Virus record (IMG/VR): IMGVR_UViG_3300037755_000523
Span: 1 to 59,734 of that record
From: a virus
Taxonomy: Duplodnaviria; Caudoviricetes
Strand: one strand, 5' to 3'
Length of the DNA: 59,734 nt
The translations under genes were made by a program, and so were the position numbers. The notes beneath the pieces are model-generated. The model worked only from the letters and a program-made list of their open reading frames with translations. It had not been told where the DNA came from and did not search any database. Below, one piece after another: positions 3,724 through 59,734 of the stretch; the stretch's first letter is position 1, and each line of letters opens with the position of its first letter.

Positions 3724-4335
3724 ATGCCAGACGAAATCACGACCAACGAACAAACGACCACCGACGCAACGGCGATAACACCGGCTACGCCCGCGGGGGC
3801 GACACCTACCGAACCGACACAGCCGGTAGACAACACCGTGCCCTATAGCCGCTTTGATGAGGTCAACAAAGCCAAAAAGGCCGCCGAATCCGAGCTTGCC
3901 AAACTACGCAAGCAGGCCGAGGATGCTGAAAGCGCAACCTTATCCGAGCAGAATCGATTCAAAGAGCTTTACGAGAAAGAGCAGGCCAAAGCCGCCGCTC
4001 TGGAAAAGCGCTTCGAGGATGTGCAAGCGCAGGTCACGCGCGACCGCATCATGGCCGCCATCGAAGCGGCGGCACGCGCCGCTGACTTCGCAGACCCAGC
4101 CGATGCACATGTATTCCTCGATGTGAACAGCATCGAGGTTGATGAGGCTGGCAAGGTAAAAGAGGTTGAAACGTTGGTCAAAAGTCTGGCACAAGCAAAA
4201 CCGTATCTAGTCGCTCAGCGCGAAGTGCAGCCAGGCAATGGCGCACGCCCTAAACCGGCGGGCGCGGCCGGCACAGCGGCGGCAGATGAAGCCGCCAGGA
4301 AACAGCACGGACGTTGGGCGCATAGTCAATTCTGA
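3724..4335 (+). CDS. Capsid scaffolding protein
   Basis: T/P-rich N-terminus, VPYSRFDEVN motif, coiled coil, KPYL motif; upstream of capsid. Confidence 0.8.
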   Translation: MPDEITTNEQTTTDATAITPATPAGATPTEPTQPVDNTVPYSRFDEVNKAKKAAESELAKLRKQAEDAESATLSEQNRFKELYEKEQAKAAALEKRFEDVQAQVTRDRIMAAIEAAARAADFADPADAHVFLDVNSIEVDEAGKVKEVETLVKSLAQAKPYLVAQREVQPGNGARPKPAGAAGTAAADEAARKQHGRWAHSQF

Positions 4336-5859: not shown

Positions 5860-6093
5860 ATGCACCCGCGAGTGATTGCCCAACGACAATCCGACGCGCA
5901 TGGCCGCATTGTGGCGGCGGTGAAAGCCGTCGCTGCAAATACCGGCGTAGCGACGTTGGATTTGACCGCCATCCGCGAGAAATCGCCGGATGTGCAACGC
6001 ATTAAAGAGTATGAGGCGCTGGCTGACTGGCTGGAGGCGCTGCGAAAGCGCACGCTGCCGGTGGTCAAGACGAGGGAGGCGAAGAATGAATAG
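5860..6093 (+). CDS. Hypothetical protein
   Basis: AGGAG RBS, 77 aa. Confidence 0.6.
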   Translation: MHPRVIAQRQSDAHGRIVAAVKAVAANTGVATLDLTAIREKSPDVQRIKEYEALADWLEALRKRTLPVVKTREAKNE

Positions 6094-6967
6094 ATTCAAA
6101 TGGCCGCTGATGGCCGCGCTTCTCGCCGTCATCCTGGCTGCCGGTGCGGTCTATGCGCAGGTTCTGCCAAAGAACCCGGTCGATTGGCTAATCGCCAAAC
6201 GCATCACCAACAGCGGCACAAGTACGCTGGCCGGCATAGTGACGACCGGCAGCGACGTGACCGTAGGCGGCGACCTTGCAGTAACCGGAGACCTGACATC
6301 CGGGGCGGTGAATGTTATCGGCGAAGTGCTCACCATTGCCGGGCAGAATTTCGTTTATGACACGCTTGGCGTGACCGAGACGCTGAACGTCACCGGAACA
6401 ACGACCCTGGCCGGGGCGACCAGCGCTAGCAGTCTGGAATTGAGTGACAACCTAACAATGACGGGGGCGATCATCGCCAACACCGTAACTGCCACTGACG
6501 TAACGACGGTGGATGACGTGACAGCTGGTGACGACCTGATCGTGACTGACGACGCCACCATTGGCGGCGACCTAGTAGCCAACACGGCGACCATCACCGG
6601 CACGGCACAGGCCGCCGACCTGACCGCGACGGACGATCTGGTAGTCGGCGATGATGCCACCATTGGCGGATTGCTCAACATGACACCGGCGGCCGTGATT
6701 ACCGTTACTGAGGCCATGACCACCTTCGCGGCAACCGGAGCCATCCAGCCGATTGCCGCAGCCGGTGCAGTTGGCATTGACGACCTCGGCACACCAGCCA
6801 CTGGCAGTTTGATGATTCTGGTGAACATCGGTGCGCAGACGATCACCATCAGTGAGACAGCGTCGATTGTGTCCGCCGGTAACGTAGTGGTCGGGGCCGG
6901 TGACACGGCGGTCTATGCCTACGTCGGCGCGAAATGGTATCAGATCGGGCCCCTGGGGAACAACTAA
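6086..6967 (+). CDS. Fibre-like repetitive beta protein with N-terminal signal peptide
   Basis: GGAGG RBS; MNRFKWPLMAALLAVILAAGAVYA|Q; DDLxVxDDATIGG repeats. Confidence 0.65.
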   Translation: MNRFKWPLMAALLAVILAAGAVYAQVLPKNPVDWLIAKRITNSGTSTLAGIVTTGSDVTVGGDLAVTGDLTSGAVNVIGEVLTIAGQNFVYDTLGVTETLNVTGTTTLAGATSASSLELSDNLTMTGAIIANTVTATDVTTVDDVTAGDDLIVTDDATIGGDLVANTATITGTAQAADLTATDDLVVGDDATIGGLLNMTPAAVITVTEAMTTFAATGAIQPIAAAGAVGIDDLGTPATGSLMILVNIGAQTITISETASIVSAGNVVVGAGDTAVYAYVGAKWYQIGPLGNN

Positions 6968-27900: not shown

Positions 27901-29661
27901 CTAGTCATCTCCCATCGCGTAGCTGATGTCAGTGCCGAGCCGCTCACCGTTGGACAGACGGACGGATGACAGATCAATGCCGAGCGTATGCAGTTGGTCG
28001 AGGCCGGTTGGTGCCACACCCAGTGCGTCCAACCGTCTGGCCGCTTCGCTTTTATATGATGTATGCGGCTTGACATTGCCATCCGCGTCACGCATTGCAC
28101 GCGCCAGCGCGGACGGGCCACCGTTCGGGTTATTGCGCCGCCAGTCCCTGACAAATGCTTCCCATTTGTATCCGTTCCCCGCCTCCGGGTCGGGGTGGTC
28201 TACCTCTGGTGAGGCCATTGGAACGGGCAAAGGAACGGGTGCGGAACAGGCATCAGGAACGGCTTCTGGGGAACGGCTAGGAACGGTCGCACCCTCAATC
28301 AGCCTCGGATACCCGCTGATCGGCGCATCGAACAGCAACCGGCGCAATTCCGGCGCAACGTGCCACGGCTGCCAAATCTGGCGGCGATACATGAATGCGC
28401 CACGGTCTGGTAGCGTGTCGGCTTTGTACTCGCGCAAATAGCTATCCTGCCCTGGTGCGACCTGGTAGACGAGCCGCATCTTCGTGGCGCTAAATACCTG
28501 TTGACTCCACTTCTCCGGGAACTGGTCAACGAAGCAAAAGTGAATGCCGGTCATTCTAGACATGCGCATCATCGAATCAATGTCGTGGTCGATTCGTGCG
28601 ATTTCTTTTTGCTTTTTGGTCGCTGCGATTTGCTCCCACATGTCACCGTACTCCTCACAAAATACCAGGATGTGCGGTAGCTCTTTCGTGCGCAACGCGT
28701 CAATGTTCGGCGCTTGGTGGTCTCGCAGAATGGCAGCGCGCCGGTCGTGTTCGCGACGGATGAGCGCCATTTGCTCGCCAAATATGTCCGCGTCGGTTGC
28801 GTTCCATTCGCAATGCACATCGAACCGACTCAGATCCGCGCCGCCTTTTGGGTCGAGGATCACCGGATGCCAGCCAAATTTGAGCGCCAGCAGCAGCGCA
28901 TGGAAGCCGGAACCAGTCGTTTTGCCGGTGCCGGTCGCGCCAACGATACCTAAATTTTGTTGAGTAGCAGGGTCAAACGCCACCGTTTGACCGGTGTCAT
29001 CCTGGCCTAGTAGCCACTTTTGCGGCGTCGATTGCGACAGTGCATCAGTCAGGCGCAACGGCTCAACTACCGGCGCAAACTCGCCATCTATCTCGTCGTC
29101 CGGTTCCGGCAATGCCAGCCGGTCAATCTTGTTGGCAAATGCACGTTGCGCCGGCATCCGTGGCATCAACGAATCGCGGCCAAACATATTCTCACGCGCC
29201 GTATCACCTGGATAGACGGCTTGCAGGTGGTGCGTGTTTTGCACCAGTGCAAAAATTTGCTGGCGCATCGGCCAACCTTCTGCCGGCTCCTGGCGGACAA
29301 TCTCGCCATCTGGCCGCAGGATGAAGCCTGCCGGCTCTAGGTTTGGGTCTAGGTGCTGTAACTCGCCTTGCAGAAAATACCATAGCGCCACCGGCCACGG
29401 CTCATTTTTGCACCAACGGCGAATCGTGCGCCGGATGACTGGCAACGAACCATCGCGGAACGTTCGATCTCGCCGCTCGCGCCGATTACGCAAAACGGCA
29501 ATTAACACAGCAATCACCAGGCCGCACAGCGCACAGAACGTCCAGAACATCCGCCAAATGACGGCCGCGAAAAGTTCCGGCTGCAGCGCCATAAACGCGA
29601 CCGCGACCAGAACGGGAGTAGCGATGATAGTTGCTGCACATCCGCCGGCCAGTTTTTTCAA
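27901..29661 (-). CDS. Membrane-anchored FtsK/TraB-like P-loop ATPase
   Basis: Two N-terminal TM segments; GATGTGKT; ILDPKGG; LVFCEEY; RMTGIH...DQ; helical C-terminal domain. Confidence 0.75.
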   Translation of the reverse strand: MKKLAGGCAATIIATPVLVAVAFMALQPELFAAVIWRMFWTFCALCGLVIAVLIAVLRNRRERRDRTFRDGSLPVIRRTIRRWCKNEPWPVALWYFLQGELQHLDPNLEPAGFILRPDGEIVRQEPAEGWPMRQQIFALVQNTHHLQAVYPGDTARENMFGRDSLMPRMPAQRAFANKIDRLALPEPDDEIDGEFAPVVEPLRLTDALSQSTPQKWLLGQDDTGQTVAFDPATQQNLGIVGATGTGKTTGSGFHALLLALKFGWHPVILDPKGGADLSRFDVHCEWNATDADIFGEQMALIRREHDRRAAILRDHQAPNIDALRTKELPHILVFCEEYGDMWEQIAATKKQKEIARIDHDIDSMMRMSRMTGIHFCFVDQFPEKWSQQVFSATKMRLVYQVAPGQDSYLREYKADTLPDRGAFMYRRQIWQPWHVAPELRRLLFDAPISGYPRLIEGATVPSRSPEAVPDACSAPVPLPVPMASPEVDHPDPEAGNGYKWEAFVRDWRRNNPNGGPSALARAMRDADGNVKPHTSYKSEAARRLDALGVAPTGLDQLHTLGIDLSSVRLSNGERLGTDISYAMGDD

Positions 29662-32744: not shown

Positions 32745-33407
32745 TCAGATTTGCGTATGTTTTCCACGGCTCTGATCGACCATGCTGTAGCCACTACGGC
32801 CACGGCTCAACTCATCCAGGCGGGAGCGGACAAACTGCTCCGCAATGGCGCGGGCGGCCTCGCCACCGGCGGCCGCGACCCGATCCAACCAGACTGATAT
32901 TTCCCGATCCTGGCGCTGAATTTCTCGCCATTCAGTGTCAATTTTTTTTATTTCGTCTAGTGCCAATACTCGCCAGTCCTCAGGCAGTGCGTCAATCAGA
33001 CGCCCGGCCTCGTCGGCTTGCTCGGACCAATGAGAGTTAATTGCATCGCCAGGAGACGCCGGATCATTGGTCAGCATGACCAAATAATCTGATGTGGTCT
33101 CAAGCGCCCTCGCCAGCACTGCGATTGTTTTCCAATTTGGATTTGCCCTCCCGCGCTCAACATCTGAAATATACCCCTGCCCGACTCGCTGTCCTGTAAT
33201 TGCCGCCATTTTATCAGCCAATTCTTCCTGGCCCCAGTCATATGCCTGGCGTAAATCGCGAACACGACGCCCCAAAGAATCTGCGAGACCTTTGCCCCGC
33301 TTCGCCTTGCTCTGCATAGCCAGAATCATACGCTGATTTTTTCGGCTATTGCTAGAATCACCGAAAAATGCCTGTTTTTCTATATTCATGCTTGACAATT
33401 GTAGCAT
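32745..33407 (-). CDS. XRE-family HTH repressor (CI-like); true start probably near 33317-33329
   Basis: LGRRVRDLR...WGQEELA...QGYISDVERG...LETTSDYL. Confidence 0.85.
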   Translation of the reverse strand: MLQLSSMNIEKQAFFGDSSNSRKNQRMILAMQSKAKRGKGLADSLGRRVRDLRQAYDWGQEELADKMAAITGQRVGQGYISDVERGRANPNWKTIAVLARALETTSDYLVMLTNDPASPGDAINSHWSEQADEAGRLIDALPEDWRVLALDEIKKIDTEWREIQRQDREISVWLDRVAAAGGEAARAIAEQFVRSRLDELSRGRSGYSMVDQSRGKHTQI

Positions 33408-47250: not shown

Positions 47251-47298
47251 GCGCGAAATTATCCTTGTCAGAAGGATAATTTCGCGCTTTTTTGTTTT
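47251..47298 (+). terminator. Strong intrinsic terminator
   Basis: 16-bp stem GCGCGAAATTATCCTT/AAGGATAATTTCGCGC followed by a T-run. Confidence 0.8.
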
Positions 47299-47487
47299 CC
47301 AATCGGGCCACCGTGCTTGAACACGGCAGCCCTGGCCGACGGGGACGAAACCGCCGGTTAGTCAGATTGTAGCATTGGCCAGCAGCGAATGCTACCGCAT
47401 ATTTCCGCTATTTTTGGCGTCCACCTGACAATTCGCTGACGACATGACGCCTGTATGGACGACACCGGAGACGGTGATACAGGGCCA

Positions 47488-47871
47488 ATGAATGAACATT
47501 TTAGCTGGTTGGTGGCTGCGATGATTTTGACAACCATCAATACAGGCGGTGGGTCGTCAGTTGATGGCGATGTTACAGTTGGCAATGATGTCGCCATGCG
47601 AGACATCATTCATGCGGATCAGTATACCTGGCGGTCGCATGTAGATCATCGTCTACGCGATTATCGCGACGAAATGCGCAGTGACATTATGGAGTTACGC
47701 CGTAATCAAAATTATCAATGGGTGATGCTTGCCATTGTAGCCGTGTTGTTTCTATTTTCGTTGACGATTTCGGCGGGCGTGGTCATCCGGCAATTTGACA
47801 TTCTGAGCGTACAGATGGAAATGCGTTTCGACCGTATAGACCGGCGTATGGATGGGGCACGTTTGCCATGA
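47488..47871 (+). CDS. Coiled-coil + TM protein with N-terminal TGGG motif (holin position)
   Basis: NTGGGSSVDGDVTVGNDVAMRD; one long TM. Confidence 0.6.
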   Translation: MNEHFSWLVAAMILTTINTGGGSSVDGDVTVGNDVAMRDIIHADQYTWRSHVDHRLRDYRDEMRSDIMELRRNQNYQWVMLAIVAVLFLFSLTISAGVVIRQFDILSVQMEMRFDRIDRRMDGARLP

Positions 47872-48245
47872 TGGATGAAACCAACACGCAAGGCGGCGCA
47901 GCGGTACAGGGCGATGCCCGCGCTGAGCGAGACCTGACCATGCGCGACCGCTATGAGCAACAGCACAGCGTTACCTTCCAGAATCCAGACAGCGCCGAAT
48001 TGTGGCGGGCGATTCTGGCACTCGGCACGCAGATGAGCGAGATGCAGGCTAGGCTCAGCGATAGGATCAACGCTGTCGATTTCAAGCTTGACGACCTGCC
48101 AAACCGGGTCGGCAAACTCGAGATCAAGGTGGATCCAGAACAGCTTCCGGTGATGATTCCGATTTTTTTAGCACTCTGGATTTCAGTGGGATTTGGACTG
48201 TTTCTCGCCCTGTTGCTCGTCGGGGCATATTTTATTATCGCGTGA
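47868..48245 (+). CDS. Paralogous coiled-coil + C-terminal TM protein
   Basis: NTQGGAAVQGDARAERDLTMRD; C-terminal TM. Confidence 0.65.
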   Translation: MMDETNTQGGAAVQGDARAERDLTMRDRYEQQHSVTFQNPDSAELWRAILALGTQMSEMQARLSDRINAVDFKLDDLPNRVGKLEIKVDPEQLPVMIPIFLALWISVGFGLFLALLLVGAYFIIA

Positions 48246-48252
48246 GAGGGCT

Positions 48253-48411
48253 ATGTCGCTATCAATGATTCTGCTCGTCATCCTAATCTTACTGCTGTTG
48301 GGATCTGTCCCGACCTGGCAACACTCGCGCGCCTGGGGCAATGGCCCGGCGGGGCTGATTGCCGTCATCGTTGTGGTCTTGCTCGTGTTGTTGCTGCTGG
48401 GGAGAATTTGA
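48253..48411 (+). CDS. DUF3309-family membrane protein
   Basis: ILLVILILLLLGSVPTWQHSRAWGNGP...LLLGRI. Confidence 0.8.
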   Translation: MSLSMILLVILILLLLGSVPTWQHSRAWGNGPAGLIAVIVVVLLVLLLLGRI

Positions 48412-48616: not shown

Positions 48617-50176
48617 ATGCCAACCATCGACACCACACCGGCCGACCTGCAAGCCAAACTAGACGCCGCCAAACCTGGCGACGTGCTTGCGATGCGTTCC
48701 GGCGAGTACCCAGGCGAGTACACCGTCTGCAACCCCGGCCTCATGTTGCTGCCCGCCGACGGCGAATTGCCCGTCTTCGTCGGGCCGACCAAGCCCGATA
48801 GCGGCACGAAACCGGCATGGCTGCATATCTACCCCAACGCCGCCAACACCGTCCTGAACGGGCTTACGCTCGCCCGTGCCGGCGACATTACGAAAGCTAA
48901 AGCCTACAATGATTTCGGCATTATCATCGAAGCGCCGGGCGTAACGGTGCAAGATTGTAGCCTGTCCGGTATGACAAAAGGCATTCACGTCAAAGGCGCA
49001 AAAAGCACCCACGTCACGCTCCGTAACAACGTCATTGGACCCACCTACCAGAGTAACATCGTCGTCGGCACGTCTTACGGCGTGGTGCGTGCGCTGCTCA
49101 TCGCCTACAATCTGCTCGAACGCTCGTACATCGAAGACGCCATCCAGTTTATGCAGAACTACGACCTGTCCGACGCCCTGAAAGCGTCCGACGTTAGCAA
49201 CCTGGGCGCTATCATCTACCAGAACACCATTCGAGACTGTAGCGAAAACGCCATCGACCTGAAGGGCGCTGGCTTGGTCGTCATTGACGGCAACAATATC
49301 ACGCACATCGCCGGCAGCAACAACGGGCCGCTGGCTGGCTGGAATCACAGCGCCAACCAGAGCATCGGCAAAGGCGCGCGCGCTTCCAGCGGCTATGTGT
49401 TAATTCGCAACAATGACCTACAGGACAATTGCAGCGGCATCCGTTCGCAGCCTGAGTGGAAAATTATCCACAACCTGATTGCCAATAACAACTACTCGCC
49501 GGCCGGAATGCTCTGGGCCGGTTATGGCATCAGCAACCAGAATGGCGGTGCGGGGCTATCTGTCGTCAACAACCGTGTCTACGGCAATCTGGGCGGCGAC
49601 CTAATCAACATGCCACCCGCCGCCGACGTTCATGGCAACCGCGCCGATGCAGGGCCGGGGGAGCCGGTAACAGGGGTTGTCAAAACGGATGGCAATCTTC
49701 TGACCGTTAAAGACGCCGGATTTTTTACTGACTGGTTTGGTCGTACTGATTTGCCGCCGGATGTGGTCTATGTCCAGGGCGACCGCTACGAAGTAGCCGC
49801 TGTTGATTACAAGGCCAATACGCTACGCCTGGACAGGCCGGTGCAAGCCACGGCAGGCGGCGATGTTTGTTGGCAATCCGCAAAGCCGATGGTGGGCATA
49901 GTGGGCGTGGAAGCGCCGCCGGTCGACCCGCCACCGGTTGACCCACCCGTTGAAGGCGTCGAAACCGTGCATTTAACCATCTCGGCAGAAATGACCGCAT
50001 CCGACGCGGCTAGTCTGCGCGCGCTATTGAATGATCGTTTGTACACGGTAAAAATGAAATACCAGCCTGTCATTTTGGAAAACATGATTGATTCAAAAGG
50101 GAACGCACTCACTTTTGACCCGGACGGTGCCACGCAGCTCCAGCCGGATTTTTCACCACCTAGAGAGGCAAAGTAA
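48617..50176 (+). CDS. Right-handed parallel beta-helix protein (pectin lyase-like fold)
   Basis: LQAKLDAAKPGDVLAMRSGEY cap; I-x-N-N-x-I repeats. Confidence 0.75.
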   Translation: MPTIDTTPADLQAKLDAAKPGDVLAMRSGEYPGEYTVCNPGLMLLPADGELPVFVGPTKPDSGTKPAWLHIYPNAANTVLNGLTLARAGDITKAKAYNDFGIIIEAPGVTVQDCSLSGMTKGIHVKGAKSTHVTLRNNVIGPTYQSNIVVGTSYGVVRALLIAYNLLERSYIEDAIQFMQNYDLSDALKASDVSNLGAIIYQNTIRDCSENAIDLKGAGLVVIDGNNITHIAGSNNGPLAGWNHSANQSIGKGARASSGYVLIRNNDLQDNCSGIRSQPEWKIIHNLIANNNYSPAGMLWAGYGISNQNGGAGLSVVNNRVYGNLGGDLINMPPAADVHGNRADAGPGEPVTGVVKTDGNLLTVKDAGFFTDWFGRTDLPPDVVYVQGDRYEVAAVDYKANTLRLDRPVQATAGGDVCWQSAKPMVGIVGVEAPPVDPPPVDPPVEGVETVHLTISAEMTASDAASLRALLNDRLYTVKMKYQPVILENMIDSKGNALTFDPDGATQLQPDFSPPREAK

Positions 50177-51253: not shown

Positions 51254-54200
51254 ATGGCGATTGTAAAGCCGACGGGGGCGGTCTCAAGCCACACCCAATC
51301 TGGCTCAGGCATTTCCACATTCTCGTTTAATCATACCGTTCCCGCGGGCGATGATCGCGCGGTCTTCGTCGTGGTCTGCGCATGGCGTAACAGCGACACT
51401 AACCCTTTCACCGTTACCCCCACCTTCGACAGCAACAGCATGTCCGAGGTGTACAGTAACAACACCACGACCAGCAATCGCTATTACCTGGTCTCTATCT
51501 GGCGCATCCTGGCCCCAGCGGTGACTGGCTCACCCGTCACCGTGGCCGGCACATATGCGACCAACACGATCAACGACCAGATCGTCTTCACCATCAGCCT
51601 GAACGGTGTCCACCAAACGACGCCGACCGGCAACACCGGCGTAGATGTGACTGGTCAGGCGCGCAGCATCGCCATTACAACCGGCGCTGACAATGCTTGG
51701 TTGCTGGCCGGAACGCTCTACTACAGTGGCACGGCGGCACTATCCGAAGTCAACTCCACCGTCGAAGACGACGAACAGACCACGGGTAGCGGTAGCACGG
51801 CAGACATTACGGCGGGCCTCTATCATCTGGTATGCACCACCGCGGGCGAGTACACGATTGAGGCGACCAGCGACGGCGAAAACCGTGGCCTCATGGCGGC
51901 GATTGAAGTGCGCCCGTCTGTGGCCGCGAATGTAAGCAACGCCCAACCCGCCTACATGGTTGGTCGCGCAACGACCGTAGATGCGCAGCCTGCCTACACC
52001 GTCGGCATTGCCACCACAGCGGATGCCCAACCTGCCTACACCATCGGGCGCGATACAGCCAGCGATGCCCAACCGGCCTACACGCTGGGCGTTGCAGGCT
52101 CTGTTGGCAGCCAACCGGCCTACGTCGCGGGCGTCAGCACTACAAGCGACAGCCAAGCGGCCTATACTGCTGGTGGTATCAATTCCGTTGACAGCCAGCC
52201 CGCCTACGCCGCGGGCCGTGTGACCGCAAGCGCAACAGTTGTGGCCTACACAGCCGGTCGCGCGACGACGACGGATAATCAACCCGCCTACATCGCCGGT
52301 CAAAACGGCATTGCGGATGCCCAACCGGCCTATGCCAGCGGACGTGTTACGGTAACGGACAGCCAGCCCGCCCACACAGCCGGTATTGCAACGGCCACTG
52401 ACAATCAACCCGCCTACGTCGTCGGTTCACCTAGCGTCGTGATGCCATCTGGTGGACTCAGCACTTACGCCGCCTCCGGTACGAGCCTAACCGCATTCTC
52501 ATTCTCGCACACTGTTCCCGCGGGCGACCGGCGCGCCGTGTTCGTCGTTGTCTGCGCCTGGCGAAACAGCGACACAACCGCGTTCACGGTCGCACCGACA
52601 TTCGACGGCGCGGCCATGACGGAGGTTGGGTCATTCACGACCACAACCAACAACCGTTACTACCTGGTCAGCATTTGGCGTATCCTGGCGCCATCCGTGA
52701 CCGGCGAACCCGTCATCGTAGCGGGCACGTACAGCGGTGCGGCCATCAATGATCAGGTGGTTCACGCCATCAGCCTGAATGGCGTGGATCAGGCAACCCC
52801 AACCGGCAATATAGGCAGCGACACAACTGGCGCAGAAAAAAGCGTCGCCATTACGACCGGCACAGATGCGGCCTGGCTGCTAGGCGGCCTGCTTGTCTAC
52901 GGCGGTGTGAGTACGCTTTCGCCCAATGGCGCAACCGTTGAGGATGACGAGCGCGCAACCGGCAGTGGCTCAACCAGCGACATCACGGTCGGTCTCTATC
53001 ATCTGGTCTGTGGGGCCGCGGGCGAACACACGATTGCTGCCGAAACGAACGGCGAAAACCGCGGCGTCTTCGGCGTTATCGAGGTTCGCGCCGATGCGCA
53101 GATCGACATCACGAGCGCCCAACCGGCCTACGTCGTTGGCAAAAGCACGGCCGCCGACAGCCAGCCAGCCTACGCGTTCGGCACAAACGACGTCGTTTCC
53201 GGCCAGCCAGCCTATTTGTTTGGCGGCGACATCCTCACTGCCAGCCAACCCGCCTACGCAACGGGCATTGCGACCGTAAGCGACAGCCAGCCCGCGTTGG
53301 TCATCGGCAAGGACACGGCAACCGATAGTCAGCCCGCTTACGTCACCGGCGTCCCTGGCTCAATAGCCAGCCAGCTCGCCTACGTCGTCGGCGTGGACAC
53401 TATCGCAGCCAGCCAGCTCGCTTATCTGTTCTGTGGCCTGACCGAAACCGACGCCCAACCCGCCTACTTGCACGGTAGCGCGCCGGCCACCGACGCCCAA
53501 CCCGCCTACGTTGTTGGTGGCACAGACGCCATCGATAGCCAACCAGCTCACGCGGTAGGACGGGCCCTAAAGAGCGACAGCCAACCCGCCTACACCGTCG
53601 GCACAGAGGGCGATTACATCTATGTCGCCACGAACGGCAGCGACGGCAGCGGCGACGGTTCCAGTGATGCGCCCTATGCAACCGTCAACAAAGCCGTTAG
53701 CGTGGCCAGCCCAGGCGACACAATCGCCCTCCGCAATGGCACGTACAACCAGCGGGCGTACATCAACAACTGGAATAGCGGCGATGCCAACAACCTGCTC
53801 ACGATCAAGGCCGAAAACGCTGGCATGGCGACGCTGGCAGGCGTGAGCAACACGCTCTACATTGTTGACATCAATAACAGTTCGTGGATTGTCATTCAGG
53901 ATCTGTTCGTCCAGTACGCCGCCGGTCACACCGTCCCGGGCGACCGCAACCATCCGATCTACATCCGTGGCACATCGAGCGACATCCGCATCACCGGCAA
54001 CCAGATTACCAAACTGGGCATGACGCCGACTGAGACGCAGATGAAAAATGACTTCAACGGCGGCTATCGCGACGTTGGCGTCAACGCATCCGGTACGACG
54101 GCGCGCATCGAGATTGATCACAACCAGATCCGCGGCATCAACAAAGCAGTCGCTTCGCAGGGCCGGGCCACGTTCTACAACATCCACCACAACCGGATGC

Positions 54201-57187
54201 ACACGGTGCAATCTTGCATCGGCATCCGCTACGGCGATTTTGTGCCAGGCCGCCACCGCGTCGCCTTCAACGATTTTGAATACTCCTACATGGAGGATGG
54301 CAGCCAACACCAGCGCGATCCGGCATTGCCTGAGCATACGATAGACACTAGTTATGTCTTCTACTACCGCAACCTGTTCCGCAATCTGGGCGAAAACGCC
54401 ATTGACACCAAAGGCGCGGAACACATCTTTTTCGTGCAGAATGTGTTCGCCAGCAATTTGGGCAATAACAACGGTCGCCACCCGACGCAGCAGACCATCG
54501 CCGGCAGCGTCAACATGATCTCATGTGGAGCTAACCAAATTACTCGCCATCGCGTCGGCTTCGACAATGTGTTCTACGACAATAGCGCGGCAATGGCGAC
54601 CTGGGACGAGGACTGCTACTACAATAATTTTGTCTGGTACAATCTACGCCGCGACCTGGTCAGCGGCGACACAGCCGACTCGCTGAAGCACCGCGGCTTC
54701 TCCTACACCGAGGGCACGGGCTTCTCCCGTATCATCCTAAAAAACAACCTGGTTGGCCGCATGTACATCGGCTCGTCGTTGCGCGACTACACCGGCACCG
54801 ACATCGACATTGACGGTAACGCCTACATCAACTGCGATCACGTGGGCTATGACGCCAAAGCCAGCAGCACCAAAACAAGTCTGGCGAACTGGCGCACCTG
54901 GGTGCAGGGTAACGGCTGGGACACCGAGGGCGAGGCCAACAGCTACGCGGGCACAGACGCCGCCTCAACGCTCATGGTCAACTGGCCGGAATTCCCAACC
55001 GGCGATTGGGACATCTACGACTGGACGGTCAAGCCGACTGCGACGCCGCTATACGGCCAGGGCGTCGCCATCACGACCGCGGCCAGCACAACGACCAACA
55101 GCACTGCGCTTCCGGTCGCCAATTCTGGCCCATTCTACGGCAGTTTTGGCCGTACCGACCTGCCGCAACAGGACATCTACATCACTGGCGTCGGCACACG
55201 CAAAGTTGTGTCCGTCAACTGGAACACGGACACACTAACGCTGGACGCGCCGGCCACGGTTGCCAACGGTGCGGCCATTTATCACGGCACGAGCGCAACG
55301 CCGAACATCGGCACGTTCTTCTTTGAGGTCGGACCCGACGCAGACGAAGAAGAAAGCGGCGGCGGCGGTGAGGAGGGCGGCGGTGAGGGCAGTAGCGGTA
55401 CGATTACGGCCGGCGCGGTCGCTTCTTTTGCCCAGGCCGGATCGGCGAGCACCTTCTCATTTGGCGCAACGATTCCAAGCGGCTCCGACCTGGCCCTGTT
55501 CGTGGTTGTGCTGGCCTGGAAGACGAATGAGACCGCCTTTACGGTGACCCCGACCTTCAACGGTGAGGCCATGACGGAGGTCTACACCGCCACGACGACG
55601 ACGACCAATCGCTCCTATCTGGCGTCAATCTGGCGCACGTTGAACCCCGCTGTCGGCGCGGGCACGGTGGCCGGAACGTACAGCAGCAACCCGACTGATC
55701 AGGTGGTCTTTGCCCTGCCACTGATCGGCGTAGACCAGTCAACGCCCACCGGCAACACCGGCAACGACACCAGCGGCGATTGGGACGTTGCGCTGACGAC
55801 CGACATTGACAACGCCTGGCTCATCGGTGGAACGGTCGTCTATGGCGGAGACAACACGCTGGGCGTTGGCGGCGCAACCGTCAAGGATAACCAGCAGGCA
55901 ACCAACACATCGGCCACGACGGACATAACAGGCGGCCTGTTCCACCTGGTCACAACGACGTTAGGCAGTCACACGCTGCAATCGACCGCCAACAACGACA
56001 CAAAGGGTTTGGCCGCAGCGGTTGTGGTGCGACCAGCAGCAGCGGGTACATGGAGCGGCAGTCAGGCGGCATATCTGGCCGGTGGCCTGAATGTTAGCGC
56101 CGAACAACCCGCTTACGTCACCGGGCAGACGACAACCAGTGACGGACAACCGGCGCACGCCACCGGTAGAGCGCTCGACAGCCAAACGCAACCGGCCTAT
56201 GTCATCGGCAAGACCACGACCAGCGATAGCCAACCCGCCTTTACGACCGGCATTGTGGCGCTTGCAGCAGACAGCCAACCGGCCCACACCACCGGGCGCG
56301 ACACAGCAAGCGGGGCAGCCGTCGCCTACACCAAGGGCGCGACCATGGCTGCGGATGCGCAGCCCGCGTACCTGGTCGGCAAGGACACGGCAACCGATGC
56401 GCAGCCGGCTTACGTTGTCGGTGTGACTACGGCGACGGATAGCCAACCGGCTTACACGGTGGGGGCGAATGGCTCGATAGAAGCCCAACCGGCTTACGTC
56501 GTCGGTGTGAGCGGCAATATAGCGGTGCAGCCGGCCTACGCCATCGGGCAGGATACGACAGCGGCGGCGCAACCCGCTTACACAGTAGGCGACGCCATAG
56601 CCAGCGATAGCCAACCGGCTTACGCCATCGGCCAGGGCGGGGCAAGCGCAGCGCGACCGGGCTACACCGTAGGTCGACAGGATGCAACCGACGCGCAAGC
56701 CGCTTTCCTGGTGGGCGCGGACACGGACGTAGGGGAGCAGATCGCCTATGCCATCGGGCAGGCTGACAGCACGGCGGCGCAACCGGTCTACCTCATCGGG
56801 CGAGCGAATGATAGCGCAGCGCAACCCGCCTATACCATCGGCAGGGCAGATGACAACGCAGAGCAGCCCGCTTACACCACCGGTCGGGACACGGACGCCG
56901 CAGCGCAGCCGGCCTACACGATCGGCCAAGCGACGGACACGGGAGATCAGACAGGCTATGCAGTCGGTAAGGACACGGACGCAGCATCGCAACCGGCCTA
57001 CCTGTTCTGTGGCACCATCGTTCGGGCAGAGCAGACGGCTTACCTATTCGCCACATCCGGCCTACCGCTCGACTGGTATCTGAGCGACAGCGCCGCACAC
57101 GATTGGGAACTGTCTGACGAAGCCGCGCACGAATGGACGCTGACGGACGAAACAATGCACGATTGGGAGTTGACAGACAACACATGA
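51254..57187 (+). CDS. Giant modular adhesin/fibre protein
   Basis: 1977 aa: three homologous ~200-aa beta domains, a beta-helix domain, 48 14-aa QPAY repeats, four 10-aa DWxLxD repeats. Confidence 0.75.
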   Translation: MAIVKPTGAVSSHTQSGSGISTFSFNHTVPAGDDRAVFVVVCAWRNSDTNPFTVTPTFDSNSMSEVYSNNTTTSNRYYLVSIWRILAPAVTGSPVTVAGTYATNTINDQIVFTISLNGVHQTTPTGNTGVDVTGQARSIAITTGADNAWLLAGTLYYSGTAALSEVNSTVEDDEQTTGSGSTADITAGLYHLVCTTAGEYTIEATSDGENRGLMAAIEVRPSVAANVSNAQPAYMVGRATTVDAQPAYTVGIATTADAQPAYTIGRDTASDAQPAYTLGVAGSVGSQPAYVAGVSTTSDSQAAYTAGGINSVDSQPAYAAGRVTASATVVAYTAGRATTTDNQPAYIAGQNGIADAQPAYASGRVTVTDSQPAHTAGIATATDNQPAYVVGSPSVVMPSGGLSTYAASGTSLTAFSFSHTVPAGDRRAVFVVVCAWRNSDTTAFTVAPTFDGAAMTEVGSFTTTTNNRYYLVSIWRILAPSVTGEPVIVAGTYSGAAINDQVVHAISLNGVDQATPTGNIGSDTTGAEKSVAITTGTDAAWLLGGLLVYGGVSTLSPNGATVEDDERATGSGSTSDITVGLYHLVCGAAGEHTIAAETNGENRGVFGVIEVRADAQIDITSAQPAYVVGKSTAADSQPAYAFGTNDVVSGQPAYLFGGDILTASQPAYATGIATVSDSQPALVIGKDTATDSQPAYVTGVPGSIASQLAYVVGVDTIAASQLAYLFCGLTETDAQPAYLHGSAPATDAQPAYVVGGTDAIDSQPAHAVGRALKSDSQPAYTVGTEGDYIYVATNGSDGSGDGSSDAPYATVNKAVSVASPGDTIALRNGTYNQRAYINNWNSGDANNLLTIKAENAGMATLAGVSNTLYIVDINNSSWIVIQDLFVQYAAGHTVPGDRNHPIYIRGTSSDIRITGNQITKLGMTPTETQMKNDFNGGYRDVGVNASGTTARIEIDHNQIRGINKAVASQGRATFYNIHHNRMHTVQSCIGIRYGDFVPGRHRVAFNDFEYSYMEDGSQHQRDPALPEHTIDTSYVFYYRNLFRNLGENAIDTKGAEHIFFVQNVFASNLGNNNGRHPTQQTIAGSVNMISCGANQITRHRVGFDNVFYDNSAAMATWDEDCYYNNFVWYNLRRDLVSGDTADSLKHRGFSYTEGTGFSRIILKNNLVGRMYIGSSLRDYTGTDIDIDGNAYINCDHVGYDAKASSTKTSLANWRTWVQGNGWDTEGEANSYAGTDAASTLMVNWPEFPTGDWDIYDWTVKPTATPLYGQGVAITTAASTTTNSTALPVANSGPFYGSFGRTDLPQQDIYITGVGTRKVVSVNWNTDTLTLDAPATVANGAAIYHGTSATPNIGTFFFEVGPDADEEESGGGGEEGGGEGSSGTITAGAVASFAQAGSASTFSFGATIPSGSDLALFVVVLAWKTNETAFTVTPTFNGEAMTEVYTATTTTTNRSYLASIWRTLNPAVGAGTVAGTYSSNPTDQVVFALPLIGVDQSTPTGNTGNDTSGDWDVALTTDIDNAWLIGGTVVYGGDNTLGVGGATVKDNQQATNTSATTDITGGLFHLVTTTLGSHTLQSTANNDTKGLAAAVVVRPAAAGTWSGSQAAYLAGGLNVSAEQPAYVTGQTTTSDGQPAHATGRALDSQTQPAYVIGKTTTSDSQPAFTTGIVALAADSQPAHTTGRDTASGAAVAYTKGATMAADAQPAYLVGKDTATDAQPAYVVGVTTATDSQPAYTVGANGSIEAQPAYVVGVSGNIAVQPAYAIGQDTTAAAQPAYTVGDAIASDSQPAYAIGQGGASAARPGYTVGRQDATDAQAAFLVGADTDVGEQIAYAIGQADSTAAQPVYLIGRANDSAAQPAYTIGRADDNAEQPAYTTGRDTDAAAQPAYTIGQATDTGDQTGYAVGKDTDAASQPAYLFCGTIVRAEQTAYLFATSGLPLDWYLSDSAAHDWELSDEAAHEWTLTDETMHDWELTDNT

Positions 57188-58167: not shown

Positions 58168-59608
58168 ACGTTGTAACTTTTTAGTCGATAATCTCGATCT
58201 GGTGGAAGCGTCTGGCGTCGAAGACGCTCGCTGGGAGTATTTCCAGCTTGCGCATCTGAGCGACGATAGCACATTTAGAATCGAAGACAAAAGCCGACAG
58301 ATCGCTTGGTCTTTCCTGGTCGCCGCAGAGGCTATCGCCAACGCGGTGCTATATGGCACTTCGTCCATGTTTCAATCCATGAATCAGGACGAAGCGAAGG
58401 AGAAGATCATCTATGCCAACCGTATCTATGAGTCGTTGCGCATCGGTGGCTTGGCGAAACTAACGCGCAGCAATCAGCTAGAGATTGCATTCGACAACGG
58501 CGCACGCATCATCTCATCACCGGGCACACCGCAACGCGGTAAAGCACAGTTTTGGGTGTACCTGGACGAGTGGGCGCACCAGAAGCATGATCGGGCAAAC
58601 TACACGGCAAGCCTACCGATCATCTCGAAAGGCGGCGTTATCCGAGGGGGATCATCACCGCTAGGCGCATCGGGCATATTTTGGGAAATTTTCACGGAGT
58701 CCCTGCGTAAGTATCCTGGCTACACTCGTAAGCGTACGCCCTGGTGGGAAATTTACGCCTTTAGCACGAATGTGCGTGAGGCGCGCAAAAAAGCGCCGGC
58801 CATGCCCACGGCGCAGCGGGTGGAAGTCTACGGCAACGAGCGCATCCAGGCGATTTTCGCCAACATGCCGCTCGAAGACTTTCAGCAGGAATACGAGTGC
58901 GATTTTGTTGACGAAACAACCGCATGGATTACATGGGACGAGATTAAGGACGCACAAGACCCGGGGCTATTGTGCCGGTTGGTTGAATCGGTTGGCACGC
59001 TCGATCCACGAGTAGCCGAAGCGATTGAGGAAACTCGTCGTGATGTAGGATGGGGTAAACTAGAACAGGTGTTTGCGGCAGGAGTGGACATTGGTCGCAC
59101 CCGTAACACGACGGAGATTTATCTGATCGGCCTATCGCCTACAAATACGTTCCCGTTGCGTTTGGCGATTACGCTTGACAATATGGAGTTTGACGATCAA
59201 CTCACCGTGATGTCGCTACTTTTACGCGTGCTGCCTATCGTGTCCATGCTCATCGACCAAAACGGCATTGGGCGCAATCTGGCCGAAAACCTTGTTGACC
59301 TGTTCCCGTCAAAGGTGCAACCAATGGATTTTACCAACGCAACCAAAACGCTTTGGGCTACGGATGCCAAGATGCTGATCCAACAACATAAGACGCCGTT
59401 GCCGGCAGATCGTGATCTGGCCTATCAAATCCATAGCATCAAGCGCATCGTGACCGCATCGCGTAATCTTGTCTTCGACACTGAGCGCAATGAGAAGCAT
59501 CACGCAGATAAATTTTGGGCCTGGGCGCTAGGGCTGGCCGGTGCAAAAGACGCAATGCAGTTCGGACAAGCAAGCGACATCCTAAAGTCAATCGCGAACC
59601 TAAACTAA
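58154..59608 (+). CDS. terL: Terminase large subunit (Mu gp28-like motifs)
   Basis: KSRQIAWS; LDEWAH; SSP; FQQEYEC; GVDIG; IDQNGIG; HADKFWA. Confidence 0.9.
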   Translation: MILSERCNFLVDNLDLVEASGVEDARWEYFQLAHLSDDSTFRIEDKSRQIAWSFLVAAEAIANAVLYGTSSMFQSMNQDEAKEKIIYANRIYESLRIGGLAKLTRSNQLEIAFDNGARIISSPGTPQRGKAQFWVYLDEWAHQKHDRANYTASLPIISKGGVIRGGSSPLGASGIFWEIFTESLRKYPGYTRKRTPWWEIYAFSTNVREARKKAPAMPTAQRVEVYGNERIQAIFANMPLEDFQQEYECDFVDETTAWITWDEIKDAQDPGLLCRLVESVGTLDPRVAEAIEETRRDVGWGKLEQVFAAGVDIGRTRNTTEIYLIGLSPTNTFPLRLAITLDNMEFDDQLTVMSLLLRVLPIVSMLIDQNGIGRNLAENLVDLFPSKVQPMDFTNATKTLWATDAKMLIQQHKTPLPADRDLAYQIHSIKRIVTASRNLVFDTERNEKHHADKFWAWALGLAGAKDAMQFGQASDILKSIANLN

Positions 59609-59734
59609 TGGCTACATTTTGGAGTAAATTCGCAATGGCAACCACAGCCGCGTACCAAACGTTTCGGCGCGTGTACAGCAATCCAGAGGACGAGCAGCGC
59701 CGGGCGGCGTTCTCATCGCGGCGCGTCGTCTACG
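59608..59734. repeat. 127-bp terminal overlap with bases 1-127 (circular assembly)
   Basis: Identical to the first 127 bases. Confidence 0.95.

Follow-up and report, generated by a model that had tools for sequence, protein, structure and literature searches.

The virus record IMGVR_UViG_3300037755_000523 (Caudoviricetes; 59,734 bp), which as a whole is the window analysed here, contains two short, adjacent open reading frames (ORFs), ORF1 and ORF2, each encoding a small membrane protein. Both proteins begin with related versions of one glycine-rich motif, and the pair thereby carries a bona fide copy of an adaptor motif of conflict systems of the NOD-like receptor (NLR) type. Below we describe the two genes, the family of proteins in which the motif occurs and its relation to known signalling motifs, and weigh what two membrane-anchored copies could do for a phage.

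Two overlapping genes for single-pass membrane proteins

The genes ORF1 and ORF2, both for single-pass membrane proteins, are conserved as a pair and coupled in translation (Table 1). They overlap by 4 nt, the ATG of ORF2 lying within the stop of ORF1 (ATGA). A longer frame is open upstream of ORF1; we place the start at the Met that yields 127 residues, because the homologues begin there, and a first-pass annotation made by a model from the letters alone had chosen the same start. That annotation had also given each protein one transmembrane (TM) helix, and hydropathy, which finds a single hydrophobic stretch of TM length in either protein, agrees with AlphaFold2 on this point. Where the annotation had seen a coiled coil, AlphaFold2 models built on family alignments predict long helices in both proteins. 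The ORF1 model has a helix at residues 5–19, low confidence over 18–40 and a long helix at 29–123 that includes the TM segment, and the ORF2 model has residues 1–33 at a predicted local distance difference test (pLDDT) score below 50, followed by helices at 40–75 and 97–124. The motif is thus disordered or of low confidence in both monomer models. With its disordered N-terminus and its C-terminal helix 97–124, ORF2 is predicted to be tail-anchored, and in these models the N-terminal arm with the motif should point towards the cytoplasm. A complex prediction for ORF1 with ORF2, run without alignments, scored 0.00 and counts neither way.

Close homologues in a collection of 5.8e9 proteins number three for ORF1 and seven for ORF2, and the two families grow to 9 and 16 members after the motif profile search described below. 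Each family has conserved sequence of its own beyond the motif: in ORF1 one block after the motif and one after the TM helix, and in ORF2 the block K-L-D-D-L-P-x-R-V-x-x-L-E at the end of the helix, before the Pro/Val-rich linker and the TM segment. In all three loci that have the pair (3 of 3), an ORF2-like gene comes immediately after an ORF1-like one. These loci are the phage itself and two sister loci (L003 and L004), the only ones in which a metagenome scan found relatives of the pair; all three belong to one phage clade. In IMG/VR no relative of ORF1, ORF2 or a third tail-anchored family was confirmed, the scan of cellular genome contigs for the ORF2 family gave no usable locus, and the ESM Atlas returned nothing for ORF2 at 0.9 or above.

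The motif is kept alike at the level of the peptide

That tandem genes here start with related motifs was the central claim of the first-pass annotation, and both ORFs and both motifs that it quoted are indeed present. Only the motif, 22 residues long, aligns when ORF1 is compared with ORF2 by BLASTP, with 11/22 identities and an E-value of 2e-5. At the DNA level the two copies share 36 of 66 bases, and the same codon is used for just 4 of the 11 identical residues. Because the codons differ in this way, we attribute the likeness to selection at the peptide level and reject, on the same grounds, that the DNA of the motif was recently duplicated or that the two copies were matched by gene conversion. 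All homologues of ORF1 and ORF2 have kept the motif. A profile made from 13 other motif proteins with no phage sequence included (profile A4), run against the six frames of the 59.7-kb genome, matches only ORF2 (E 1.2e-10) and ORF1 (E 5.3e-10).

The two copies also depart from the family consensus together. Column 23 of the motif logo (278 instances) is Gly in 96% and Met in 6, and these six are four ORF1-family and two ORF2-family proteins, those nearest the phage's own, and nothing else. Two positions earlier, in a column that is 85% Phe, the same ORF1 proteins have Val and the same ORF2 proteins have Leu. The sister loci L003 and L004 retain Gly (or Ala) and Phe or Tyr at these two columns. 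A departure at the same position in both partners, within one lineage, is what in-register stacking of the motifs predicts, and the rare Gly-to-Met change in both suggests that the motifs of ORF1 and ORF2 contact each other. The first-pass annotation had proposed that the two proteins co-polymerise into a pore, trigger host effectors for lysis or act as decoys; it is co-polymerisation of the pair that draws some support from this coordinated substitution.

A mobile module in the company of immune domains

For the wider search we used a profile of the motif only (profile A3; 32 columns, 13 segments from both the ORF1 and the ORF2 family), which found 327 representative proteins (clusters) at E<=1e-3 among 1.84e9. 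The 278 instances give the logo x-x-[IV]-N-T-G-G-G-A-[YAS]-V-x-G-[ND]-V-x-[AT]-G-[GR]-D-F-[VI]-G-R-D-[KQ]-I, and the consensus that the first-pass annotation had given matches it. The motif is about 25 residues long and rich in Gly, Asn, Asp, Val and Thr; Gly is enriched 3.2-fold, Asn 2.1-fold, Thr 1.8-fold, Val 1.4-fold and Ile 1.3-fold, Leu and Pro are depleted to 0.09-fold each and Lys to 0.54-fold, and Gln is not enriched (0.73-fold). Compared with the motif masked, 158 motif proteins form 24 clusters unrelated to one another and leave 54 as singletons, and because the proteins are so unrelated otherwise we regard the motif as a mobile module. No Pfam or NCBIfam model, even at loose thresholds, covers the motif in the motif proteins scanned. 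No chain in the PDB matches the motif profile (best E 0.5), and the protein P0062 has no PDB match either.

The proteins around the motif are largely those of prokaryotic conflict systems. A first Pfam scan covered 146 of the 150 A3 matches listed (the other four are three known family members and a protein 5,044 residues long); 118 of the 146 have no Pfam domain, and the 28 others include 11 with STAND NTPase domains or fragments (nSTAND1, NB-ARC with TPR, NACHT, nSTAND3, NCH2) and 6 with EAD1, EAD7 or EAD9. A second set consisted of longer proteins, the best 120 of 397 matches at E<=10, with domains counted by hand. Here 72 of 120 have a Pfam domain, and in 66 of these 72 it belongs to the repertoire of NLR, caspase, CHAT, TIR, EAD, TCAD or Death-like domains, the remaining 6 having only TPR, LysM or pentapeptide repeats. 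Among the former are 18 STAND proteins and 19 caspase or CHAT proteins, along with TIR_2, TCAD2/9, bDLD1, CyanoTRADDas_TM and DUF4062. Proteases of the caspase, CHAT and trypsin-like kinds are often found in motif proteins. The first-pass annotation had proposed a profile search of Chloroflexota proteomes as a check, and the associations found in the search made here are with NACHT, NB-ARC and nSTAND1 on the sensor side and with caspase, CHAT, TIR, EAD1/7/9, TCAD2 and bDLD1 on the other.

The position of the motif depends on the company it keeps. It starts at or before residue 44 in 16 of the 18 STAND proteins. In caspase/CHAT proteins (17 of 18) and TIR proteins (5 of 5) it falls within the C-terminal half, behind the enzyme domain. 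It stands at the very C-terminus in 19 of the 158 motif proteins. Near the top of the search the commonest architecture (69/158) is an N-terminal motif with a TM segment within 45 residues of the C-terminus, in proteins up to 260 residues long, a count that is biased because the profile was made from such proteins. The 26 tail-anchored clusters looked up all lie on contigs no longer than 46.6 kb and some cellular-type motif proteins on contigs of 186 kb to 1.73 Mb, but short contigs make up most of the total, so that length is a poor guide to phage or cell here. Some non-phage proteins (P0013, P0032 and P0035) have two copies each; in the membrane-type P0013 these are tandem copies at the C-terminus, following a hydrophobic region, an arrangement that recalls the pseudo-repeats of HET-s-type effectors. 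A further recurrent arrangement joins the motif to NACHT, a formylglycine-generating-enzyme-like (FGE) sulfatase domain and, in one case, a caspase domain in front (P0199, P0237, P0254, P0265, P0270, P0032); these proteins are NLR-like, with the FGE-like domain as the sensor part.

The association with NLR-like and effector proteins, which the first-pass annotation had described for Chloroflexota, therefore holds. The seven matches from named organisms are two from Anaerolineae, one from Caldilineaceae and one each from Lysobacter, a gammaproteobacterium, Ca. Accumulibacter and Ca. Competibacter, and since 3/7 are Chloroflexota and 4/7 Proteobacteria the motif is not specific to Chloroflexota. 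On plasmids, tblastn with a 42-residue motif protein gave no match; searches with P0083, P0136 and P0141 found NLR homologues, none with the motif, and two N-termini that were translated are without it. Five whole plasmid records (2.85 Mb), scanned with the motif profile, contain no copy.

Relation to known signalling motifs and membrane proteins

The closest likeness is to the bacterial amyloid signalling sequences (BASS). In the Bell-domain/NLR pairs of BASS1–10, as set out in the accessible part of Dyrka et al. (2020, 10.1101/2020.01.06.895854), a motif of about 25 residues is shared by adjacent, often overlapping, collinear genes; these motifs are enriched in Gly, Asn, Gln, Val and Ile and depleted in Lys, Pro and Leu, stand at the N-terminus of NLRs, form pseudo-repeats on some effectors and occur in several phyla, Chloroflexota among them. 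The motif described here is likewise short and shared by overlapping adjacent genes, N-terminal on the NLRs of its family, present in some proteins as pseudo-repeats and represented in Chloroflexota, and its composition corresponds, except that Gln is not enriched. Unlike the BASS pairs, the phage has neither an NLR nor a Bell domain, both of its copies are N-terminal and both of its proteins are membrane-anchored. The phage therefore lacks the arrangement of an NLR N-terminus matched by an effector C-terminus, and on cellular effectors the motif is mostly internal. In the available part of supplement 1 of PMC8086366, a string comparison finds the motif's key 5-mers in none of the BASS_C sets C01, C02, C03, C06, C07 and C09, and set C02 has, by eye only, an N-T..G-G and G-R-D-F flavour in common with it.

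BASS11, the motif of the Bab/Agp system, has TIR, CHAT and EAD7, along with NACHT and NB-ARC, as partner domains, according to the accessible text of Ibarlosa et al. (2024, 10.1101/2024.11.07.622273). This is the list of partners of our motif too; as further points of likeness, Bab/Agp is carried by a mobile element of phage origin and its effector attacks the membrane. The residues that the text names, however, are out of register with our consensus (T85, I87-G88-S89-V90, Q92, D99 and N100 of Bab, N12 of Agp), and the phage pair has no sensor protein. Judged from these residues, the phage motif and BASS11 are probably different families.

EAD, TCAD and bacterial Death-like domains are modular adaptors of NTP-dependent conflict systems, in which they connect STAND NTPases with effectors, caspase and TIR among them, as far as the available parts of PMC7159879 and PMC8195603 describe them. 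EAD1/7/9, TCAD2/9 and bDLD1 are found together with the motif in single proteins; these domains are, however, folded, helical and 60–100 residues long, in contrast to a glycine-rich peptide of 25 residues. In the same available text, neither paper mentions such a motif under the terms amyloid, glycine-rich, prion or low complexity.

A viral parallel is offered by herpesviruses, whose M45/vIRA, ICP6/ICP10 and VZV ORF20 are decoys with the RIP homotypic interaction motif, or RHIM, that act on RIPK1/RIPK3 (PMC13506858, in its accessible part). There, as here, a virus encodes a short homotypic assembly motif of host cell-death signalling. The herpesvirus proteins differ in being soluble products of animal viruses with a RHIM that has no sequence similarity to the phage motif, and for the phage proteins a decoy role is, unlike theirs, hypothetical.

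Holins, and tail-anchored proteins that help in lysis, like XhlA from Bacillus prophages, are small tandem membrane proteins with a cytoplasmic helix and one TM segment. All-or-none triggering, as in holins, would suit a nucleated polymer. ORF1 and ORF2 are, as holins are, small phage proteins with at least one TM segment, and unlike them they match no holin or lysis family in Pfam (E up to 5), PHROGs or NCBIfam and have no endolysin gene beside them. ORF2 was also considered as an XhlA-type lysis protein and rejected, having no match to such a family in Pfam or PHROGs.

Possible assembly at the membrane or interference with the host

What could a phage gain from two anchored copies of such a motif? 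It is possible, and the reading to which we lean, that the motif brings the two proteins into one assembly on the inner side of the membrane, where they form a nucleation-type switch that acts as a holin-like trigger. The motif, which we infer to be a homotypic assembly tag of the amyloid-signalling type, would form in-register beta stacks; the motifs of ORF1 and ORF2 would stack on each other, and co-polymerisation at the inner membrane face would bundle the TM helices. Such a switch could serve the phage as a self-contained, holin-like device for making membrane lesions or timing lysis, ORF1 nucleating or regulating the polymer and the tail-anchored ORF2 making up its bulk. The pair would then amount to the membrane effectors of these immune systems in a form carried by a phage. 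The length and composition of the motif, its terminal site on NLRs, its tandem repeats, its presence in adjacent gene products, its disorder in the predicted monomers and the change at the same site in both copies all fit the amyloid-signalling class. The invariant gene order of the pair, the tandem C-terminal copies of P0013 and the place of the pair after a strong terminator, first in a block running into the terminase genes and with a third small membrane protein next in line, are counted in favour as well, as are the family membership, modularity and immune company of the motif, its conservation as peptide and the frequency of the motif-TM architecture.

Several observations weigh against this reading. 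Amyloid or beta-stacking behaviour of the motif is inferred only. The coordinated substitution is a single evolutionary event, and for four ORF1-like proteins and one ORF2-like protein from the databases the phage of origin is not visible. In caspase, CHAT and TIR proteins about 95–165 residues follow the motif, and because it is internal there, not C-terminal as in the published Bell/BASS effectors, it may act differently in those proteins. The lysis context is also wanting: the first-pass annotation had placed the pair in a "holin position", and no endolysin gene lies beside it or among the 66 ORFs scanned with Pfam and the 68 scanned with PHROGs. The phrase has no support beyond the presence of small membrane proteins ahead of late genes. 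With two strict back-translated DNA patterns, a search of 2.9 million viral contigs in IMG/VR found the motif in only one other contig (one pattern gave this contig, the other none), and the motif is thus not a common lysis device of phages. That contig (L005) is an unrelated fragment of 16.6 kb, 42% complete, on which the gene for a 111-residue motif-TM protein (3986–4321) shares 28 nt with the start of the large terminase gene; the portal gene comes after the terminase. The fragment has the motif only once, and the position of this gene suits an accessory or anti-defence gene better than a holin.

The main rival to the reading we favour, and one we regard as unlikely, is a membrane-tethered anti-defence decoy of host NLR signalling, in which the phage motifs would co-assemble with a host NLR sensor or with caspase/TIR effectors, sequester or cap them and so block abortive infection. 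The phage does encode a copy of a motif that cellular immune sensors and effectors use, one that is otherwise a hallmark of NLR, caspase, TIR and EAD conflict-system proteins, and the accessible parts of PMC13506858 and PMC7375649 describe viral copies of homotypic immune motifs of the host as known decoys. Two diverged copies could address two host partners, and the terminase whose gene is overlapped in the L005 fragment is a protein that some STAND sensors detect (PMC13601566, in the part available). Against this, the phage motifs leave the consensus at its most conserved positions (Gly to Met and Phe to Val or Leu, in ORF2 also Gly to Gln and Gly to Glu), the rare Met occurring in no cellular protein among the 278 instances. 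The regions beyond the motif are conserved as well, which is more than a decoy needs.

Less probable still is a role without amyloid, in which the motif would be a conserved linker or recognition element: a site of proteolysis or modification, or the docking site of one common partner. This would agree with the internal motif of caspase, CHAT and TIR proteins, which lies between the enzyme domain and a C-terminal adaptor, with the frequency of caspase, CHAT and trypsin-like proteases among its companions and with the lack of a matching PDB chain. It accounts less well for the features that the motif has in common with amyloid-signalling motifs (length, composition, terminal site on NLRs, tandem pseudo-repeats, adjacent gene products), and the same-position change in both partners is a prediction of in-register stacking.

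We consider it improbable that the pair is a defence or exclusion module carried by a temperate phage, whose membrane effectors would kill or seal the lysogen on superinfection, either alone or through host sensors with the motif. Bab/Agp and its paralogues lie in defence hotspots of prophages (10.1101/2024.11.07.622273, accessible text), the phage has a gene for a cI-like helix-turn-helix (HTH) repressor, and terminator-like hairpins bracket the pair in the manner of a moron. Against this, no integrase was recognised among the ORFs of the Pfam and PHROGs scans, which likewise revealed no sensor gene (STAND/NLR, TPR or nuclease), and the pair is oriented as the late genes are, and no promoter was recognised that would serve it alone. 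That two low-complexity N-termini are alike by chance, to which a short and glycine-rich motif is open in principle, has a negligible probability, being refuted by the A3 search with its 327 proteins and by the phage-free profile A4 that matches these two frames only, as well as by the pairwise E-value, the 53–59 bits to a family profile with E-values set for 1.84e9 proteins and the retention of the motif in all homologues.

The reading we favour, co-assembly of the pair through the motif, would have consequences beyond this phage. That NLRs signal to death effectors in an amyloid-type manner is established for fungi, for animals and, since recently, for a single anti-phage system of E. coli. 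We know of viral counter-measures with the same assembly motif only from herpesviruses. Literature searches returned no report of a phage carrying such a tag, and the word "phage" is absent from the accessible text of a 2026 review of functional amyloids in signalling (PMC13506858). Five peptide strings of the motif occur in no searchable paper, and a sixth matched only nucleotide sequences such as primers. The motif family, with at least 327 clusters, may be an undescribed BASS-like family, and a prion-like assembly signal of the host may be what the phage exploits or disturbs. More doubtful than co-assembly itself is the wider proposal that this is the first phage-encoded motif of the amyloid-signalling type, taken from bacterial NLR/caspase/TIR immune systems and set on two membrane anchors, and that the phage uses templated polymerisation either as clock and executioner of its own lysis or to poison the host's relay from NLR to effector. 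Poisoning of that relay, if true, would be the prokaryotic counterpart of the herpesvirus RHIM decoys. If the pair does assemble through the motif, two proteins of about 125 residues would offer a small, testable system for nucleated polymerisation in phages, with which to ask how membrane lesions are timed or how NLR-type immunity is disarmed, and would bring to notice a large motif family in which STAND NTPases are connected to caspase, CHAT, TIR, EAD and TCAD proteins.

The phage genome and the surroundings of the pair

The record is a complete phage genome with an exact direct repeat at its two ends. Its gene order passes from the terminase, on the far right, to the head genes on the far left. 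Pfam and PHROGs recognise structural genes (for the scaffold, major capsid, tape-measure and large tail proteins), a minus-strand block that includes an FtsK-like protein and regulators of the HTH type, a replication block comprising a methyltransferase, a helicase of the DinG type and a primase-polymerase, and the small and large terminase subunits at the right end. No tRNA genes were found in the genome. Identity is 33% between the terminase and its counterpart in Brevibacillus phage Emery, and about 25% between the capsid protein and the capsid proteins of phages of Arthrobacter, Microbacterium and Mycobacterium; all capsid and terminase relatives are distant (23–33% identity) and belong to phages of Actinobacteria, Brevibacillus, Thermus, several Proteobacteria and cyanobacteria.

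Table 1. Features of the phage genome, with positions in the 59,734-bp window
Feature	Position	Strand	Description
Direct terminal repeat	1–127 and 59608–59734		Exact, 127 bp
325-residue protein	5990–6967		After the capsid gene; weak bactofilin-like match (E 9e-5, below the Pfam cut-off), faint baseplate-wedge matches
FtsK/SpoIIIE-like ATPase	27901–29661	minus	N-terminal hydrophobic region; amid otherwise uncharacterised genes
cI-like HTH repressor	32745–33407	minus	Pfam/PHROGs
Terminator-like hairpin	47251–47298	+	16-bp perfect stem, 5-nt loop, T-run; closes the upstream early/replication block
Non-coding stretch			200 nt, between the hairpin and ORF1
Inverted repeat	47369–47395		11-nt arms with 91% complementarity and a 5-nt spacer; within the non-coding stretch that precedes ORF1
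ORF1	47488–47871	+	127 residues (longer frame opens at 47455, 138 residues); short hydrophobic N-terminal helix, motif, long helix, one TM helix, 27-residue Arg/Asp-rich tail
ORF1 motif copy	47539–47604	+	Residues 18–39 of the 127-residue protein; 53 bits to profile A3
ORF1 predicted TM helix	47719–47787	+	Residues 78–100; hydropathy, AlphaFold2
ORF2	47868–48245	+	125 residues, predicted tail-anchored; N-terminal motif, disordered linker, helix 40–75, Pro/Val-rich linker, C-terminal TM helix
ORF2 motif copy	47883–47948	+	Residues 6–27; 59 bits to profile A3
ORF2 predicted C-terminal TM helix	48156–48239	+	Residues 97–124, one residue after; hydropathy, AlphaFold2
Weak terminator-like hairpin with T-run	48207–48236	+	Within the 3' end of ORF2; consensus match only
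DUF3309 protein	48253–48411	+	52 residues, two hydrophobic stretches, without the motif; third small membrane protein in the row; PF11752, E 4e-18
84-residue ORF			Between the DUF3309 gene and the beta-helix gene
Right-handed beta-helix protein	48617–50176	+	519 residues; weak NosD-like N-terminus
Two small ORFs			After the beta-helix gene, ahead of the gene for the 1,977-residue protein
1,977-residue protein	51254–57187		Faint chondroitinase-B and tail-protein matches; then the terminase genes

The inverted repeat upstream of ORF1 may be an operator, a hairpin or a regulatory site for the late block. The hairpin within the end of ORF2, if it works, may make ORF1–ORF2 a separate transcription unit. 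DUF3309, to which the gene directly after the pair belongs, is an uncharacterised family of small membrane proteins, here found in a phage late region. The beta-helix protein, which has no match in the PDB, is encoded downstream of the pair both in this phage and in the sister locus L003; it is the only candidate nearby for a glycan-degrading enzyme. Together with the 1,977-residue protein it may represent depolymerase or fibre proteins encoded away from the main tail block.

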